DNA of 64,000 nt from an uncultured Phycisphaerales bacterium (GTDB lineage Bacteria; Planctomycetota; Phycisphaerae; Tepidisphaerales; Tepidisphaeraceae): contig CAVWLP010000003.1 of the NCBI GenBank assembly GCA_963755915.1, positions 1,312,001 through 1,376,000 of the forward strand, in the 5' to 3' direction. Positions within the stretch are counted from its first letter, which is position 1. Every line of letters starts with the position of its first letter. Below are positions 12,842-39,395 of the stretch, one piece after another. The position numbers and the translations under genes were made by a program. Under the pieces are notes generated by a model. It did not search any database, was not told the DNA's origin, and saw nothing but the letters and a program-made list of their open reading frames with translations.

Positions 12842-14331
12842 TAATCCCGTTCGGCACGCAGGCTTCATCGGAGCATTCCAAAGCTGTGGAGGACGCGAAA
12901 CAATTGAAGCTTAGATACTTTTACTTTCCCCTGCTGCACGCCGGCGTCCGCAAGAGCGCAGCATCAACCGCGAGGTCTCCGCGGCGACGGATTCCCCTTC
13001 AGTTTACTCCCAGTTTTTTCAAGGCCTCCGCTCTTGCCCTCAGCTTAATCCCGGTGTTATCCGGCTTGTTCAGGAATCGAAGCACGTCCTGTTCCTCGGC
13101 CAGCCCCAGCAGATACCAGCCGATCATGTTCCGCATCGCCTTGTTCGGCTTCCTGCCGCTGATCAGCTGAATCAGCACGCAGACGATCAGCGCGCAGTGG
13201 ATTTGGATGTCGATCCCCTCCTGGCGTTGGCTCAGCAGGTGACGCATGCCCAGCAGTTGCTTGAAGATCCGGAAGAACAACTCAACGGTGTAGCGGTACA
13301 GATAAATCAGGGCGATCAATTCCGCCGGCAGGTCCAGCAGGTTCGTGTACAGGATGATCAGGTCCGTCGGCTTGTTGCCGCTGCGCGTGCGGCGCGGATG
13401 GGGTTTCACCTGCACTTCCACCCGTCGCACCACCCTATCCGCCGCCGTCTCCAGGCCGTCGAGTTTCACCAGCGCGTCTCGCACCACGCCGCCGTCCAAT
13501 GCTTCCTGTGAAAGCAATCGTTCTTCAAACAGCTCAAACACCGAGTTTTCCGCGGCCCGCATCACAAAGGAGCTTTGCGCCGCGGCGATGTCCGCAAAGA
13601 GGCTCCGGTCGGCGTAGCCGCCGTCTCCTACATAGCACCGTCCTGCTTCCAGGCTGCGCCGCAGGACGTTGTTTTCACGGTTGGCCCCCGCGTTGCGAGC
13701 GCCAGTGCGGTCGAGGCGATGGACTTTGAACGTCTCCAGATCGAATTGAACGTGCAAACGCCAGCCATAGACCGCTTTCCCGTCCCGGGAGGTGTTGTAG
13801 CGCGCATCGATGCCGCAAGCGGATTTGGCCAGCCGACTCAGCGCCGTCAGCACCGTCCCGTCGACCAGCGTGATCGCCTGCCCAAAGTCCGCAAGACGCG
13901 GATCGGGCGCCTGGGGCAGTTCCCCCGCCAATTCCTCAATCAGCGGCGTCAAACGCCCCGGCTCGAACACCCGAACCGATTCAGAGAAACTGCCCACGGA
14001 AAAACGCTTAATTCCCAGCGCCTTGGCCACCTTGGGCAGTTCAGCAACCTCCTGAAGATCCCGCAGGGATTGGATCAGCGGATTCCAGGTGTAAAGCAAA
14101 ACCAGCTTGCAATAATCGTCGAAGTGAAGCTGGCGGTTCCCGGCTCGATCCCGCTCACAGCCCACATCCCGCAGCGTGGGCAGCAGCGCGAAGACGCGCC
14201 GCAGATGTCCGAGGCACAGGATCTCTTTTTCCTTCAGTCTTGCCTGCACGTCCGGCAGCATGCCATAAAAAGATCAAAGGCGCAATCTCAATATCTTGCT
14301 GCTTGCGCGAACCCCGTGCCGAACGGGATTA
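12842..14331 (-). mobile_element. IS4-family insertion sequence, 1490 bp
   Basis: Perfect 17-bp TIR TAATCCCGTTCGGCACG (12842-12858 and 14315-14331); 9-bp target duplication ACAAAAGGT (12833-12841 and 14332-14340). Confidence 0.95.
12999..14261 (-). CDS. IS4-family DDE transposase
   Basis: LVDGT, VGDGGY and the Y-x2-R-x3-E-x6-K (YLYRYTVELFFRIFK) signature. Confidence 0.93.
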   Translation of the reverse strand: MLPDVQARLKEKEILCLGHLRRVFALLPTLRDVGCERDRAGNRQLHFDDYCKLVLLYTWNPLIQSLRDLQEVAELPKVAKALGIKRFSVGSFSESVRVFEPGRLTPLIEELAGELPQAPDPRLADFGQAITLVDGTVLTALSRLAKSACGIDARYNTSRDGKAVYGWRLHVQFDLETFKVHRLDRTGARNAGANRENNVLRRSLEAGRCYVGDGGYADRSLFADIAAAQSSFVMRAAENSVFELFEERLLSQEALDGGVVRDALVKLDGLETAADRVVRRVEVQVKPHPRRTRSGNKPTDLIILYTNLLDLPAELIALIYLYRYTVELFFRIFKQLLGMRHLLSQRQEGIDIQIHCALIVCVLIQLISGRKPNKAMRNMIGWYLLGLAEEQDVLRFLNKPDNTGIKLRARAEALKKLGVN

Positions 14332-26800: not shown

Positions 26801-26961
26801 AATCCGAATCAATGACGAATGACGAAATCCGAATTGAGACCTTTGAAAAACCGTCCACCAATCCCAAATAAAACCCGGCGCGGCGACTTCACTCGCCGTG
26901 TCTTCGAAAAGTTGAGGATTTGCTGAAACTGATCGATTCAGGCGCGGTAAAATCTACGGCG

Positions 26962-27516
26962 ATGAAGCAATTCACCCGATGGCTTTTCCGCGGACTCGCT
27001 GCAATCTCGCTGATTCTTTGCATCGTTATTATTGCGCTGGGCATCAGAAGCCATTGGGCCGCCGATTCTGCCGCTGTTTGGGGCAAACCATCCGCCGCGG
27101 GGCAAGTCGATGATGGGTGCATGGTTCGAATTACCTCTTTTCAGGGGAGCATGGAGATTCGACAAACATACCTGCTATGGATAAAGGATGTCAGCTTCTC
27201 AGGCGAACCGGTGCCGGACCGATCACGATCCTTTGGATTTCCAGGATTCCGTTGGCAAACCTCCTGGTTTGGCCCGTCATTGCTGGAATATCCCGGCAAA
27301 TATGATGGGACGACGCGAACGCTCCGTGTGAGTGATTGGTTGCTGGTGCCTGTCACTGCGATCTTGCCGATCATTGGCCTGTTCCGCTGGCTCAAACGCG
27401 ATCGTTTTGCCGCGGATTGCTGTCAGAAATGCGGGTACGATCTTCGCGCCACGCCGGAACGATGTCCGGAATGTGGGACCATCCAGCCGCCGAAAAAAGA
27501 GATTGCCGCGAGCTGA
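26962..27516 (+). CDS. Membrane protein with C-terminal zinc ribbon, array member A1
   Basis: MKQFTRWLFRGLAAISL TM segment, second TM segment, CQKCGYDLRATPERCPECG. Confidence 0.85.
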   Translation: MKQFTRWLFRGLAAISLILCIVIIALGIRSHWAADSAAVWGKPSAAGQVDDGCMVRITSFQGSMEIRQTYLLWIKDVSFSGEPVPDRSRSFGFPGFRWQTSWFGPSLLEYPGKYDGTTRTLRVSDWLLVPVTAILPIIGLFRWLKRDRFAADCCQKCGYDLRATPERCPECGTIQPPKKEIAAS

Positions 27517-27658
27517 ATCATCCCACAACGTCACGTTGCACTTCATGTACTACAACTATTGCCGGATTCACCAGACGCTTCGCGTCACACCGGCGATGCA
27601 AGCCGGGCTGGCCGATCATGTTTGGGAGCTTGAGGGATTAGTGAACCTTTTGGGCTAA
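27517..27658 (+). repeat. Scaffold repeat X1, resembling an IS1-family transposase 3' tail
   Basis: Translates as TLHFMYYNYCRIHQTLRVTPAMQAGLADHVWELEGLV; near copy at 28717-28859. Confidence 0.8.
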
Positions 27659-27679
27659 GCGATACGCCGTATCTCGCGA

Positions 27680-27970
27680 CTAGAGTTCGTCGCCTCCTAT
27701 TCTAGATTCGTAAAATCCGATGGCAATCGCCCCAAAAAGACATGGCGGAAATATATCCCATGCGATTTTCTCGCACCACAAATTAACGACCCAATCCTGC
27801 CTTGAAACCTCAGTGTATTTCCCGTGGTCAACGACATAAAAGCGACCATTCTGTACCCTTCCAGATTCGGCGCTGCCGCCCATGAGTATGTCTGCAAGAA
27901 CAAACGGCAGGAAGGACAAAATTGCCGCCGCAAAAAACATTTCCCTTATTCGAGTTAGCCTTTTCTTCAC
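27680..27970 (-). CDS. Small two-TM hypothetical protein, array payload P1
   Basis: 96-aa, AT-richer ORF lying between repeat X1 and a TIR-like end. Confidence 0.6.
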   Translation of the reverse strand: MKKRLTRIREMFFAAAILSFLPFVLADILMGGSAESGRVQNGRFYVVDHGKYTEVSRQDWVVNLWCEKIAWDIFPPCLFGAIAIGFYESRIGGDEL

Positions 27971-28013
27971 GCCAGAAAATATACATCAAAATCAACGTGG
28001 AAATTAAATTTTA

Positions 28014-28172
28014 ATTCAAACCGACCCACTACCGAATTCCAGGGAAACCCGACAGGCGACCAATCGCCGCGTGATTGCGGGCAGCCGGGAACGGCAGGCG
28101 AAAGAGGCGCAACGCGAGGGTTGCACAGAACATGTCTGGGAGACTGAGGAATTGGTGGGGCTTATCGACTGA
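28014..28172 (+). repeat. TIR-like end plus scaffold repeat B1
   Basis: ATTCAAACCGACCCACTACC, then about 140 bp ending in EHVWETEELVGLID*; near copy at 29446-29604, 3' part also at 26911-26953. Confidence 0.8.
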
Positions 28173-28193
28173 GGCGGGGTAGAATTACCGCGA

Positions 28194-28716
28194 ATGAAAC
28201 GGTTCCGCCGCCGGCAGTTCAACGCGCTAAGTGGGATGTCGTTGGTGCTGCTGGCGGTAACGCTGTCAATGTGGCTTTTGGGGCCAACAAAAGTCTATTG
28301 GAACTGGGCCGGCAGCGGTGGAAATCTGCAATTCTTCGCCAGGACAATCGTCTACTCGCGCGGCAACTATTTTAGTCAACCGGGGGGGCGCTCGCCCCAA
28401 TCAGGCCGTTGACTATTGGATCGCCGGATACACGCATCGTTCCGGAGTGTTTCCAGAAAACTACGATATCCGCAAACAGGGCTGGGTTGGGTTCAACGCC
28501 GATGAATGGTGGATAAGCCTGCCTTGGGTGGCAGTGCTGACGGCCTTGCTCCCTTTGGTTTTGCTCCTTGATGCGCATTTGAAATACACGCGGTGGAGGA
28601 CGATGCGCCGATCGGGTCGCTGTTCTAATTGCGGCTACGATCTTCGCGCCACGCCGGATCGATGCCCCGAATGCGGGACGATTCCATCGCCGAAAAAAGT
28701 GATCGCCGCGAGCTTA
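28194..28716 (+). CDS. Zinc-ribbon membrane protein A2 (frameshift near 28385; stop changed TGA to TTA)
   Basis: MKRFRRRQFNALSGMSL..; CSNCGYDLRATPDRCPECG in the 28318 frame. Confidence 0.75.
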
Positions 28717-28859
28717 ATCATCCCCAAAACGTCACGTTGCACTTCATGCACTTTAACTACTGCCGGGTTCACCAGACGCTTCGCGTTACACCAGCGATGC
28801 AAGCCGGGCTGGGCGATCATGTTTGGGAGATTGAGGAGCTGGTAACGCTTCTGGATTAA
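28717..28859 (+). repeat. Scaffold repeat X2 (IS1-like transposase tail)
   Basis: TLHFMHFNYCRVHQTLRVTPAMQAGLGDHVWEIEELVTLLD*; starts exactly 1200 bp after X1. Confidence 0.8.
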
Positions 28860-28879
28860 CGCCCCGTTAGAATGTCAGC

Positions 28880-29446
28880 GTGAAACGCCGCTTATTCAAT
28901 GTGATGGCGGGGCTGTCGCTGGTGCTTGCGTTCGTTGTATGCATTCAGTGGTATCGCGGCTACCAAGAACAGGATCAATTGTCGATCCGGCGTTATGTCG
29001 GGGTGCGCGAACATCCGACCCAAGAGCAATTCGGTGTCGTTTGCTGCCAAGGGGCGTTCTGGTTCTATGCAAGCTGGCAGCGGTCCGACACAATAAACGC
29101 TGCGCCTTCATTGCTTGTCGAATGGCAGCAGCAGCTAGACCTTGGCTGGCGCGTGCGCATCAGAACCTACATCAACCCCATCTATCCTTCGTTTCGCACC
29201 GGATGGATTAACAGATTTGGCTTTCACGCTTCCCACGACAACCGTGCCGTCAATGTCCTGATCCCCATGTGGTTTTGTGCATGTTGCACAATCGCCTTGC
29301 CATTAGCTTGGATACTCTTTGCTCGAAGCCGTGTCCTTCGGGGGCATTACCCTGGAGCAAAGCCCTGCCCGCAATGTGGGTATGACCTTCGCGCCACGCC
29401 TGATCGCTGTCCGGAGTGTGGAAAATCCCCCGATAAAACTATTTAA
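28880..29446 (+). CDS. Zinc-ribbon membrane protein A3
   Basis: MKRRLFNVMAGLSL..IPMWF..CPQCGYDLRATPDRCPECG. Confidence 0.87.
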   Translation: MKRRLFNVMAGLSLVLAFVVCIQWYRGYQEQDQLSIRRYVGVREHPTQEQFGVVCCQGAFWFYASWQRSDTINAAPSLLVEWQQQLDLGWRVRIRTYINPIYPSFRTGWINRFGFHASHDNRAVNVLIPMWFCACCTIALPLAWILFARSRVLRGHYPGAKPCPQCGYDLRATPDRCPECGKSPDKTI

Positions 29447-29604
29447 TTTCAAACTGCCCACTACCGAATTCCGGAGAAACTTGACAGGCGACAAATCGCC
29501 GCGTGATTGCGGGCAGCCGGGAACGGCAGGCGAAAGAGGCGTGACGCGAGGGCTGCACAGAACATGTTTGTGAGATTGAGGAATTGCTGAAGCTGATCGA
29601 CTGA
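29446..29604 (+). repeat. TIR-like end plus scaffold repeat B2
   Basis: ATTTCAAACTGCCCACTACC followed by a near copy of B1, offset 1432 bp. Confidence 0.8.
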
Positions 29605-29678
29605 CGCGCGGTACAATTTCCAGCCGATCAACTGCGTTCTACATTCGTTCCGGATTTAAGAGCCGGCTCGGAGGAACG

Positions 29679-30017
29679 GTGAAATCGCACATACGCCACG
29701 AAATTGTCAATTTGGTTCTCGCCATCCCGATACTCGTGATTTCAGTCTGGATCGGATCGGAGACGCCGGATTTGCTCAATCCTTTTAATCACGGTTATAT
29801 GCCGGATCTGTGGATTCTGGTGCTTCCGGCACTCCTTGCGTCAGCAGGGATTGTGGTAAATAACCTCTTGGCCATCATAATCTATTTTTATCAAGGAACT
29901 CCGCGCCAGCCGTCAACGGCATGCTCCCAATGCGGCTACGACCTCCGCGCCACGCCCGACCGTTGCCCGGAATGCGGAACAATCCCACCCCCGAAAAAAG
30001 AGATTGTCGCGACGTGA
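29679..30017 (+). CDS. Zinc-ribbon membrane protein A4
   Basis: Two TM segments then CSQCGYDLRATPDRCPECGTIPPPKKEIVAT; GGAGG RBS. Confidence 0.82.
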   Translation: MKSHIRHEIVNLVLAIPILVISVWIGSETPDLLNPFNHGYMPDLWILVLPALLASAGIVVNNLLAIIIYFYQGTPRQPSTACSQCGYDLRATPDRCPECGTIPPPKKEIVAT

Positions 30018-30030
30018 ATCACGTCCACGC

Positions 30031-30439
30031 TCAGGCAGTCTGCGCGAGCAGGGCGTTGAATCCGGCTTGGGTAAAATGGCGATCGCCCGTGAGCGCATCT
30101 GTCAGGCCCTGGCGCTGCATTGTTACGAACGACGTGCAATCGGTCAGGCTCCAGGATTGATCGGCTCGAGCACGGAACAAATCGGCCGCGGATTGAAATA
30201 ACTCCTGTGATGGCGGAATCAGTTGGCAAAGCGGATCGCTGTCAAAGCGATCCAGGAGCCCAACGAATATGGCTCGATCGCGCGGGGCTGAAAGCCCGTC
30301 ACCCACTTCCGTAAACACCACGCAGTTGTGACAATCAGACCTTCGTAAGTTTGTGAGAATTCGCGAGCCGCGCCGTGAGCGGCGTCGCGCGGGTTCAACA
30401 GTGCGAAAAATAATAGCTGTCGGCAAAGACCGCCTTCAC
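30031..30439 (-). CDS. PIN-domain (VapC-like) toxin, frameshifted
   Basis: GTG start KAVFADSYYF.., WSLTDCTSFVTM..ALTGDRHFTQAGF. Confidence 0.85.
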
Positions 30440-30669
30440 TTCTTCTCCCGACCATGAAGGTAGTGATCATGATTCTCAGCCATGTCCGCTGGAAGATCGG
30501 GGCATGATCCGACAAGGTTCCCGAACCGCTCGAGCAATGTGCTCGCCGGCTGGGGATCGGTGCTCGGCCGCGGAGGTTGGACTGCAACCTCCACCTCCGC
30601 ACCCTCAGGTAACTGGACCGCCTGATCCAATACGACCACGCCGTTCTTGATATGGCCTCGATAGGTCAT
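30436..30669 (-). CDS. Putative antitoxin
   Basis: MTYRGHIKNGVVVL..LPEGAEV..DLPADMAENHDHYLHG; stop overlaps the PIN gene start. Confidence 0.8.
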   Translation of the reverse strand: MTYRGHIKNGVVVLDQAVQLPEGAEVEVAVQPPRPSTDPQPASTLLERFGNLVGSCPDLPADMAENHDHYLHGREKK

Positions 30670-38151: not shown

Positions 38152-38525
38152 TGCATTTAGCTCTACTCCGCTTACCACCAATCACCTGAGAAGTCGTCAA
38201 TAAACTGATGCCCCGCAGGGAACCTCCCCGCACCCCTTCGCTGGCGGACCGAATCTGATGCGTCGGGTCTCGCTCCAGTTGCGCACGCCTTCGCGGAAAT
38301 CCCCGCTCAGACTCGGGGTCCCAGTTTAGCGACCGCTGCTCGCCGTCAAGGTCCCTCCCCAAGGGTCCCCTCCCTCCGGGCCGCTCCACCTTCCGGGGCT
38401 TCGCCCCTGACTGCTGCGCCACGGTCGCTGCCATTCCCTTCCCCCATCGAGGCTGAGGCGGGTGTGTGGTTGGTCCACAACCCAAAGACCTTCGGTCACT
38501 AAGTTTTTTGGAAGGAGTGTGCGTT

Positions 38526-39395
38526 ATGTCATCGTTCGATCTCTATCAATCCGTCACCGACCAGATTGTCGCCATGCTGGAAGCTGGCGTTGTCCCTTGG
38601 CGTTCACCAATCCTCGGACGATCCAAGGCCGGGTATCCCAAGAATCTCAACACTGGCAAACCGTACCGCGGCGTCAATGTCTTCCTGCTGGCGTTCACGG
38701 CTTTTGCCAAGGGGTACGGCTCGTCTTATTGGCTCACGTTTAACCAGGCCAAGGAGCGTGGCGGAATGGTCAAGAAGGGCGAGAAATCTTCGATGGTCGT
38801 TTTCTGGAAGCAGTACGAAACGACCGACAAGGAGACTGGCCAGCCGACCACCGTGCCGGTCATGCGGTATTACAACGTGTTCAATGCCGAGCAGGTTGAC
38901 GGCATCGAGATTCCCGACGCGGTGAAATTTGAGCCGATCGACTTCCAACCGATTGAAGCGGCCGAGCAGATCGCCGCTGGATATGTCGGCGGGCCAGCCG
39001 TCGGACATGACGGCGGACAGCAGGCGTTTTATCGTCCTGCCCTCGATACCGTCCACATGCCGGAGCGGACCCGTTTTGCTTCGGCGGAGGAATACTATTC
39101 GACGCTGTTTCATGAGCTTTCCCATTCGACCGGGCATAGCTCACGGCTGAATCGGAAGCTGGACACCAATCCCAAGCCGTTCGGTTCACCTGATTACGGC
39201 AAGGAGGAGCTTGTCGCGGAAATGTCCTCAGCATTTCTGTGTTCGTACGCCGGGATCCAGCCGACGGTGATTGAGAATCAGGCCGCATACCTTGCCGGAT
39301 GGCTCAAACAACTGAAATCCGATAAGAAACTGGTTGTCTCCGCCGCCGGGCATGCCCAGCGGGCAGCCGACTGGATTCGCGGCGAGAGAGGTTAA
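38526..39395 (+). CDS. ardC: ArdC-family ssDNA-binding antirestriction protein
   Basis: GVVPW, YRGVN, WLTFNQA, YNVFNAEQ, HELSHSTGH and EELVAE motifs. Confidence 0.9.
   Translation: MSSFDLYQSVTDQIVAMLEAGVVPWRSPILGRSKAGYPKNLNTGKPYRGVNVFLLAFTAFAKGYGSSYWLTFNQAKERGGMVKKGEKSSMVVFWKQYETTDKETGQPTTVPVMRYYNVFNAEQVDGIEIPDAVKFEPIDFQPIEAAEQIAAGYVGGPAVGHDGGQQAFYRPALDTVHMPERTRFASAEEYYSTLFHELSHSTGHSSRLNRKLDTNPKPFGSPDYGKEELVAEMSSAFLCSYAGIQPTVIENQAAYLAGWLKQLKSDKKLVVSAAGHAQRAADWIRGERG

Follow-up and report, generated by a model that had tools for sequence, protein, structure and literature searches.

A head-to-tail array of transposase-less IS1-family remnants with differing payload genes beside ychF in an uncultured Phycisphaerales bacterium

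The 64,000-nucleotide (nt) stretch of DNA analyzed here (the window; positions 1,312,001 to 1,376,000 of contig CAVWLP010000003.1, assembly GCA_963755915.1) comes from an uncultured Phycisphaerales bacterium and carries, next to ychF, an array of small genes separated by conserved scaffolds. Reading of the sequence and of its open reading frames (ORFs) places at 26912-30025 five co-oriented units in the order B'-A1-X1-P1-end-B1-A2-X2-A3-end-B2-A4, the alternation described in the original prediction, with P1 alone on the reverse strand. Each unit can be regarded, on well-established sequence grounds, as the 3' tail of a transposase gene of the IS1 family of insertion sequences (IS), followed by a payload and by an IS right end, such that the last 14-46 transposase codons, the payload and the right end are retained. 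Of the right ends, those behind P1 and A3 are intact, and the other three, behind A1, A2 and A4, have decayed. In what follows, G000 is the genome of this stretch, C2 and C3 are contigs of G000, and G001, G002, G003, G008, G010 and G014 are related genomes.

The left edge of the array is B' (26912..26954, +), the last ~14 codons of a transposase tail, in which the stop has changed from TGA to TCA and after which comes a TAAAAT box; B' is 85.7% identical to the last 42 nt of B2 and 84-88% identical to other tails in the genome. A1 (26962..27516, +) encodes 184 aa with two membrane segments, a C-terminal CxxCGYDLRATPERCPECG zinc ribbon and the end ...PPKKEIAAS, and its last codons and stop (KKEIAAS and stop, then ATCATCCCACAAC) are overlapped by a decayed right end (27493..27529, +), recognized by eye and without a statistic against intact ends encoding KKEI(I)SN and stop. 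X1 (27530..27658, +) covers approximately aa 231-274 of the transposase with frame and stop kept (nhmmer expectation value (E) 2e-32), and is 92.5% identical over 107 nt to an intact gene at C2:3553717-3553823. The next payload slot holds P1 (27680..27970, -), an ORF for a 96-aa predicted membrane protein, and closes with a right inverted repeat (IRR; 28015..28033, +; TTCAAACCGACCCACTACC) that differs at a single position from the 19-nt repeat terminating the intact element described below. B1 (28034..28172, +) consists of a ~90-nt Bcore (28034-28128) and of the last ~16 transposase-tail codons with their stop. A2 (28194..28845, +), a gene of the same zinc-ribbon family, is split by a frameshift at a G7 run (28382-28388) into overlapping ORFs (28194-28412 and 28318-28845); it has also lost its stop (TGA to TTA) and reads through a decayed right end (~28693-28730, +) into X2 (28731..28859, +), again a tail of approximately aa 231-274 with frame and stop kept (nhmmer E 9e-32; 90% identical to the intact gene). 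A3 (28880..29446, +), a 188-aa member of the family ending in ...KSPDKTI, stands directly before the second IRR (29448..29465, +; TTCAAACTGCCCACTACC), from which one base is missing. B2 (29466..29603, +) repeats the succession of Bcore, last ~16 tail codons and stop, and is followed by A4 (29679..30017, +), a 112-aa family member ending in ...PPKKEIVAT, and by a decayed right end (29994..30025, +) with ~8 nt resembling the start of the X scaffold. At this right edge, repeat family D1 ends at 30025, and likeness to G001 and to other junctions stops at 30021-30023.

That X and B each occur as near copies was borne out by alignment: the 3' end of A1 with X1 (27413-27635) is 86.6% identical over 224 nt to that of A2 with X2 (28613-28836), and the end with B1 (28008-28189) is 87.4% identical over 182 nt to the end with B2 (29441-29621), with BLAST E values of 1e-58 to 1e-73 for the scaffold repeats. 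The repeat periods are ~1,200 and 1,432 nt, the 3' end of A4 is a third copy of the ribbon-coding 3' end, and both X and B terminate in ...HVWE.EEL.... and a stop.

X is firmly assigned, by sequence comparison, to the last ~46 codons of an IS1-family transposase gene. This identity was traced by tblastn with a transposase from the same genome, and a profile of 83 transposase tails matches X1 and X2 at E ~1e-32. The original prediction had taken X for such a tail and the conserved end as the right end of a passenger-carrying element, and had proposed a search for a full-length transposase with the same ends; an intact element that has both, together with a target duplication, lies at C2:3550800-3554413 (3,614 bp). 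It starts with a left inverted repeat and passengers, continues with a single-ORF transposase of 274 aa and a payload slot, and closes with a right inverted repeat, of which the 19-nt end of the window is a copy. Its transposase gene (C2:3553014-3553835), the tail DNA of which is 90-93% identical to X1 and X2, is followed by a zinc-ribbon gene and then by TTTCAAACTGACCCACTACC, the "end" of the prediction, while the matching left repeat lies 2.2 kb upstream. Both termini read GGTAGTGGGTCAGTTTGA(T/A) and are flanked by an 8-bp target duplication, CGAAATCG. The other cargo comprises a Peptidase_M78 (IrrE-like) gene, an HTH_3 gene and two unnamed genes.

IS1-family elements are bounded by terminal inverted repeats of ~20 nt starting GGnnnTG and generate target duplications of 8-9 bp; in classical IS1, a -1 frameshift joins InsA, whose N terminus bears a zinc finger, to a second ORF, InsB', and ISfinder also holds single-ORF and ISMhu11-type subgroups. 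In its transposase profile, terminal repeats and target duplication, the parent element agrees with the family. The transposase scores 29.7 bits with Pfam DDE_Tnp_IS1 (PF03400), above the cut-off of 24.1, and homologues at 56-88% identity are labeled "IS1 family transposase" by JGI, NCBI and RefSeq, including on RefSeq plasmids of cultured bacteria. Related pairs of terminal repeats were found in four further complete elements. The target duplications are CGAAATCG, GGCCTCCG, AAGCCGAG, GAAATTCG and two more of ~8 bp; duplications of 8 bp also flank an element present twice (99.8%), elements of a Phycisphaerales metagenome-assembled genome and of an Acidiphilium plasmid, and a 473-bp miniature in G001. 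The classical IS1 type is not what is seen, as there is one 274-aa ORF that starts with a helix-turn-helix-like region, with no zinc finger and no second frame seen; it is a single-ORF subgroup, and not IS1 itself, that the parent element fits.

In a set of 80 loci drawn from many phyla, the terminal repeat GGTANTGGNTCAGTTTGAA was located downstream of the transposase gene in 71 and upstream of it in 62; extra genes take up 0.7-3.5 kb ahead of the transposase gene, and the distance from that gene to the right end ranges from 8 nt to 3.7 kb. Judged from these loci, the parent element thus belongs to an IS1-family lineage that carries cargo and is widespread. Miniature elements bounded by both repeats and by target duplications occur as a 90-bp form in G000 (C3:584788-584877) and a 473-bp form in G001 (L121:1052-1524), the latter with its left repeat fused directly to transposase codon ~237 and then a payload of ~310 bp. 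A second IS1-family element of ~2.45 kb is present in G000 as two 99.8% identical copies (C2:1476044-1478489 and C2:2155900-2158347; L161), a near identity that suggests recent activity; it has repeats GGTACTGGTTCAGTTTGAAT and duplications of ~8 bp, and its cargo between left repeat and transposase gene consists of a helix-turn-helix gene and a Gp49-like one, the latter scoring below the Pfam cut-off. On the outer side of many right ends, in G000 as in the genus, stands (C)GAAAT(T)CG, with AAACTTGAC-like words 12-20 nt beyond it; noted without a statistic, this flank motif may reflect a target preference or a repeated target sequence.

The link between the IS and its recurrent payload is written into the end of the gene. 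Where the right end is intact, its inner part supplies the codons for ...KKEI(I)SN together with the stop, an arrangement shared by G000, G001 and a Phycisphaerales element with a transposase of only 63% identity; in an Acidiphilium element, the transposase ORF itself terminates in ...KEEISN and stop within the repeat. With up to 6 mismatches allowed, the IRR coincides with the stop codon in 8 of the 39 ribbon-family ORFs of G000, and at 14 of 5000 control ORF ends. Since the last codons and stop of the ribbon genes are encoded in the right end, the gene family has travelled with the element. A1, A2 and A4 terminate in ...KKEIAAS, KKVIAAS and KKEIVAT, and we read these termini as decayed right ends, on account of which every unit of the window takes the form tail, payload, right end. 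The exact ribbon-to-IRR pattern, searched with zero mismatches in 151 genomes of the class, a sample without other genomes of the genus, was found in G000 only.

The ribbon-to-tail junction exists in two subtypes: in the first, transposase codons N-H-A-A come straight after the stop, the repeat having lost its outer 9 nt, which makes it a deletion product; in the second, which is that of the window, a remnant CCCACAAC precedes codon ~231. At the IRR-to-B junction, the complete repeat is followed by ~90 nt of Bcore and then by the last 16 tail codons. The original view of B as a transposase-tail scaffold holds for its last ~47 nt, which fit the tail profile (E 3e-6), and fails for its first ~90 nt, which lie outside that profile; B as a diverged tail throughout was rejected for this reason. 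The idea that B is the inner part of a left repeat, split off by a right end that had inserted 16 nt inside a left end, was not supported: the profile built on 65 left ends matched the repeat alone, and pairwise alignments beat shuffled sequences in just 2 of 30 comparisons. Bcore has four copies in G000 and one in G001, each directly after an IRR. When B was searched in 60 other genera of the family, tail-end matches alone were returned, and within the genus the search gave a single Bcore-like copy, that of G001.

A1-A4 are laid out as an N-terminal membrane segment with W.RSY, a variable middle and another membrane segment, and then an arginine-rich stretch with the CxxCGYDLRATPxRCPECG ribbon after it; the zinc ribbon of the family is C-terminal and cytoplasmic. 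Without the ribbon, the four bodies give no significant BLASTP match to one another. With the ribbon and second membrane segment included, A1 and A3 are 34% identical over 93 aa, and A1 and other members of the family 29-33% over 170-221 aa. The claim that payloads differ is accordingly sound for the unalignable bodies and for the unrelated P1, and needs correcting for A1-A4, which are clearly distant paralogues of one family, neither unrelated genes nor arbitrary cargo. At least 4,310 database proteins match A3 at E ≤1e-5, and their source names are all "hypothetical protein" or evidently automatic labels. Pfam yields generic ribbons only for the family, with weak zinc-ribbon matches for A1, and comparison with solved structures by sequence likewise gives generic zinc-ribbon matches only. 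No PADLOC defense model matches A1, A3, A4, P1, the transposase or the toxin-like pair described below; P1 has no match in Pfam, NCBIfam or PADLOC, and no relative among the array payloads or the other payloads of the slot examined in the genus. A literature search, supplementary files excluded, turned up no paper on the element, the array or the ribbon motif.

A1, A3 and A4 look like working genes, and A2 is broken. The A1 orthologue in G001 shows 88.5% DNA identity and a ratio of non-synonymous to synonymous divergence (dN/dS) of 0.31 at dS 0.275. A3 has a copy at another locus (window 28802-29477 against C2:2031306-2031987; 91.5% over 682 nt), with proteins 90% identical and dN/dS 0.35 at dS 0.14. 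For neighboring genes, dN/dS is 0.02-0.20. The ribbon genes are thus under purifying selection, with dN of 0.05-0.09 at dS of 0.14-0.28. The 3' ends of A4 and of the second zinc-ribbon gene that G001 has at this locus are 90% identical. One G fewer in the G7 run at 28382-28388 would bring A2 back into frame, and short-read contigs of several sequencing runs start or stop beside it, which may mean length variation in the population. Elsewhere in the genus, the payload slot also hosts unrelated genes, including a methyltransferase-like gene. At one such locus (L139; G010:C2:166246-169264), a 1.3-kb slot contains a 207-aa ORF with a DPPW methyltransferase-like motif, seen by eye, and a 198-aa reverse ORF; the two may form a restriction-modification pair that the IS carries.

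X, B and the end recur outside the window, as the original prediction had asked to be checked. The same grammar is found in G000 at C2:3540931-3543398, C2:3505458-3509693 and C2:1388574-1389954, single units occur at C2:1625320-1626138 and C2:2031307-2031973, and similar arrays exist in sister genomes. The four G000 arrays contain 18 tails, and within each array these all point the same way. A query of ribbon plus X matched in 23 of the 41 genomes searched (including G000 and the unpublished G014), with 22 of 24 in the family and 0 of 16 outside it. The terminal repeat is present in 12 of 13 genomes of the genus (a reversed control gave 0 matches), and a tail lies within 1.5 kb of 26 of its 39 instances there. 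Just 2 of these 26 units have a full transposase, the other 24 being truncated; the scan left out the A3 unit of the window, whose repeat is one base short. Payloads of the 26 units measure 258-1292 bp, 11 of them with a zinc-ribbon ORF and the rest with unrelated genes. The left break points of the tails range from aa 174 to 263, and one junction, at C2:1389281, has an intact right end directly against transposase codon 174 of the copy that follows.

This recurrent grammar is what a working cassette system would offer, in which the scaffolds would serve as recognition sites and a transposase acting in trans, or another recombinase, would move single units in an integron-like fashion. Strict alternation of scaffolds with different payloads, repetition of the layout at four loci and in sister genomes, the 24-to-2 excess of truncated over intact units, tails that keep their frame, stop and 18-codon core, and an active-looking transposase in the genome are all in line with it. 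Conversely, the window units have no left repeat: between 26900 and 30100 no repeat in left orientation was found, the only ends being the right ends at 28015-28033 and 29448-29465, and those miniature forms that do have target duplications all possess both repeats. Because no unit has a left inverted repeat, the units cannot move by ordinary transposition. The array contains no transposase of more than 63 codons and no integrase, in keeping with the original prediction, and among the 16 ORFs of at least 200 aa between 12999 and 42450, Pfam detects no recombinase, just an unrelated DDE_Tnp_1 transposase. Folding of X and B is no better than that of shuffled sequences (z -1.86, +0.42, -0.42 and +0.43), so that a structured RNA was rejected along with a folded recombination site, and the varying break points of the tails are expected of decay, not of a defined site. 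We thus consider a working cassette system quite unlikely; a dedicated cassette mechanism is not supported, and the description of the locus as a non-autonomous gene-cassette array was not borne out, for want of left repeats and of any sign of a recombinase or of site-specific exchange.

Comparison of the locus next to ychF across genomes, another check that had been proposed, revealed a difference in unit content between G000 and G001. The distance from ychF to an acyltransferase gene is 630-710 bp in G002, G003 and G010, 1.7 kb in G008, where a DUF1559 gene alone lies in between, 3,965 bp in G001 and 5,199 bp in G000, which marks the array as a lineage-specific insert. G001, the closest genome, with flanks ~92% identical, has here an orthologue of A1 and a further ribbon gene, together with a small membrane ORF in reverse orientation and a right end, as compared to five units in G000, and the stretch that differs lies between ribbon-coding repeats, at 27479 on one side and at 29931 on the other. 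In the spacer of the two ribbon genes of G001 (L154:3301-3347), a repeat of ~35-40 nt was noticed that recurs at more than 10 places in G000 with 88-95% identity and may be a dispersed palindromic family. Adjoining the right edge of the array (window 30031-30669, -) are a PIN-domain gene, with a weak Pfam match of 17.8 bits, and a small partner gene upstream of it, a toxin-antitoxin-like pair; at the corresponding position, G001 lacks a counterpart of the PIN part (30031-30419) and has one of the partner gene. An unrelated DDE_Tnp_1 transposase gene (12999-14261, -) and an ArdC-like gene (ArdcN plus zincin metallopeptidase; 38466-39395, +) hint at more mobile DNA nearby.

A repeat-full region in a metagenome-derived genome of 81% completeness and 8% contamination could in principle be an assembly artefact. 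Short-read contigs from four soil runs nevertheless cover every internal junction with 0 differences, or with 2 in one 839-nt contig, bridging A1-X1, P1-IRR-B1, B1-A2, A2-X2-A3, A3-IRR-B2-A4 and A4-flank, and they contain the G7 run of A2. These contigs argue against misassembly, not as independent evidence, given that the runs may be the source samples; with the related array at the same locus in G001, they render an artefact hardly credible. Some soil contigs show other joints. One set (27628 to 28012) represents a relative whose transposase tail is joined directly to the right end, payload-free, and another (29983 to 29566) has a ribbon 3' end joined to a B-type tail; such joints probably stem from paralogous copies or from related organisms of the same soils.

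Ordinary tandem duplication of a gene with its spacer, followed by fast divergence of the bodies, would account for the periods of ~1,200 and 1,432 nt and for A genes that all belong to one family with conserved ends and a variable middle. Yet the scaffolds, non-coding ones included, are 85-98% identical overall and the bodies between them are unalignable, without BLASTP match, such that the units do not align over their full length. At C2:3541369-3542980, three ribbon and tail scaffolds are 96-98% identical and enclose three gene bodies without detectable similarity. Because of purifying selection (dN of just 0.05-0.09, as measured above), bodies duplicated along with such similar scaffolds should be nearly identical. 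Furthermore, A3 has its 91.5% identical copy at another locus, and P1 is unrelated and on the opposite strand. Simple tandem duplication is therefore rejected, as the original prediction had it when it spoke of payloads that are swapped rather than duplicated, and we regard it as very improbable. Unalignable bodies beside alike scaffolds imply either that payloads were exchanged or that scaffolds were homogenized, and both call for homologous recombination on the scaffolds.

We consider it likely that the array consists of five head-to-tail, transposase-less right-hand remnants of a passenger-carrying (transporter) IS of the IS1 family, shaped by deletion and homologous recombination; the anatomy and the IS1 origin are established, and we infer the history of deletion and recombination. 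First, co-oriented copies of the IS or of its derivatives would have come to adjoin one another. Second, deletions from a right end into the next copy would have removed the left ends and most of each transposase gene. Third, repeated RecA-type recombination or gene conversion would have taken place between conserved scaffolds, namely ribbon, right end and tail (~230 nt), IRR and B (~180 nt), and tail and gene start (~100 nt). Such recombination would have duplicated units, kept scaffolds alike and swapped payload bodies.

Transposition alone could be invoked instead, with repeated insertion into or next to resident copies (self-targeting), trimmed by IS-promoted adjacent deletions and without homologous recombination. 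The right end abutting codon 174 at C2:1389281 looks as it would after an insertion or an adjacent deletion, right-end flanks share the target-like (C)GAAAT(T)CG, and the 2 of 30 comparisons mentioned above suggest a right end 16 nt inside a left end. This account is unlikely in our judgment: the junction subtype without the outer 9 nt, a deletion product, recurs seven times in G000 beside different genes, scaffolds of 96-98% identity around unalignable bodies need exchange or conversion, and random insertion would not co-orient 18 of 18 tails.

Several points weigh against a history of deletion and recombination among IS1-family remnants. This history is reconstructed from end products, and the shared ribbon-to-tail junction could have spread with diverged genes by other routes. 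Left-end profile, pairwise alignment and tail profile did not reveal the origin of Bcore, the first ~90 nt of B. As for the family, the NCBIfam IS1 model NF033558 gives 58 bits (E 1e-15), below its cut-off of 100. All X copies keep frame and stop, and their differences fall mostly at third codon positions (e.g. 5/1/12, 4/0/8); every tail, moreover, holds a perfectly conserved 18-codon core. Our preferred explanation of this conservation is gene conversion from live transposase genes, and an unrecognized function of the tail would also explain frame, stop and third-position pattern. A TAnAAT box 7-8 nt before start codons had raised the suspicion of a promoter in the tail, which a sigma-70 consensus scan did not support (2 sites in the region for 2.3 expected, none before an A gene).

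If the array is made of such recombining remnants, then remnants of a cargo IS can persist as ordered, co-oriented arrays with swapped cargo, in a lineage documented here with cargo on both sides of the transposase gene. A mobile element is linked here to a very large unnamed protein family, the multiplication of which is explained by a stop within the terminal repeat. For annotation, tails and ends mark cargo slots, and the arrays constitute a natural test of gene shuffling by short IS remnants. One may go further and imagine that the remnants act as portable homology arms which, together with live IS1-family elements, would sustain recombination-based shuffling of variable membrane zinc-ribbon and other small genes from one array or element to another in Phycisphaerae. 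We hold this idea to be a doubtful, speculative extension; if true, the arrays would be a transposon-derived counterpart of cassette arrays with no need for a site-specific recombinase, and the in-frame 18-codon tail core would be under selection for its role in shuffling or for driving payload expression.

Set against known systems, the array resembles an integron array in layout only, through co-oriented single-gene units, conserved spacers and different genes in the slots. It has no integrase and no attC-like folded site, its spacers being remnants of a transposase gene and of IS ends, and it is not an integron array. Mobile insertion cassettes (MICs) and MITEs (miniature transposable elements with inverted repeats) are non-autonomous IS derivatives able to keep passenger genes, and the true examples derived from this IS are the 473-bp and 90-bp forms; array units, which are devoid of left repeat and target duplication, fall outside these classes and should not be mobilizable as such. 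On R plasmids, IS-promoted adjacent deletion and recombination between direct IS1 repeats amplify IS1-flanked resistance determinants. The likeness there resides in a right end joined precisely inside a neighboring copy and in co-oriented repeats that can recombine unequally; in contrast, the array repeats are remnants of 140-230 nt, and the outcome is a mosaic of different genes rather than extra copies of one segment. Finally, with the transporter IS (tIS; PMC3129680, PMC9330008), the parent lineage shares, as a tIS of the IS1 family, a DDE transposase with the IS1 Pfam domain, GGnnnTG repeats, an 8-bp duplication and passengers inside the repeats. It is the intact element only that is a tIS in this sense, whereas the window array has no transposase or left end and aligns five right-hand remnants in a row, and what further sets this lineage apart is its recurrent passenger, one membrane zinc-ribbon family whose stop lies inside the right repeat.

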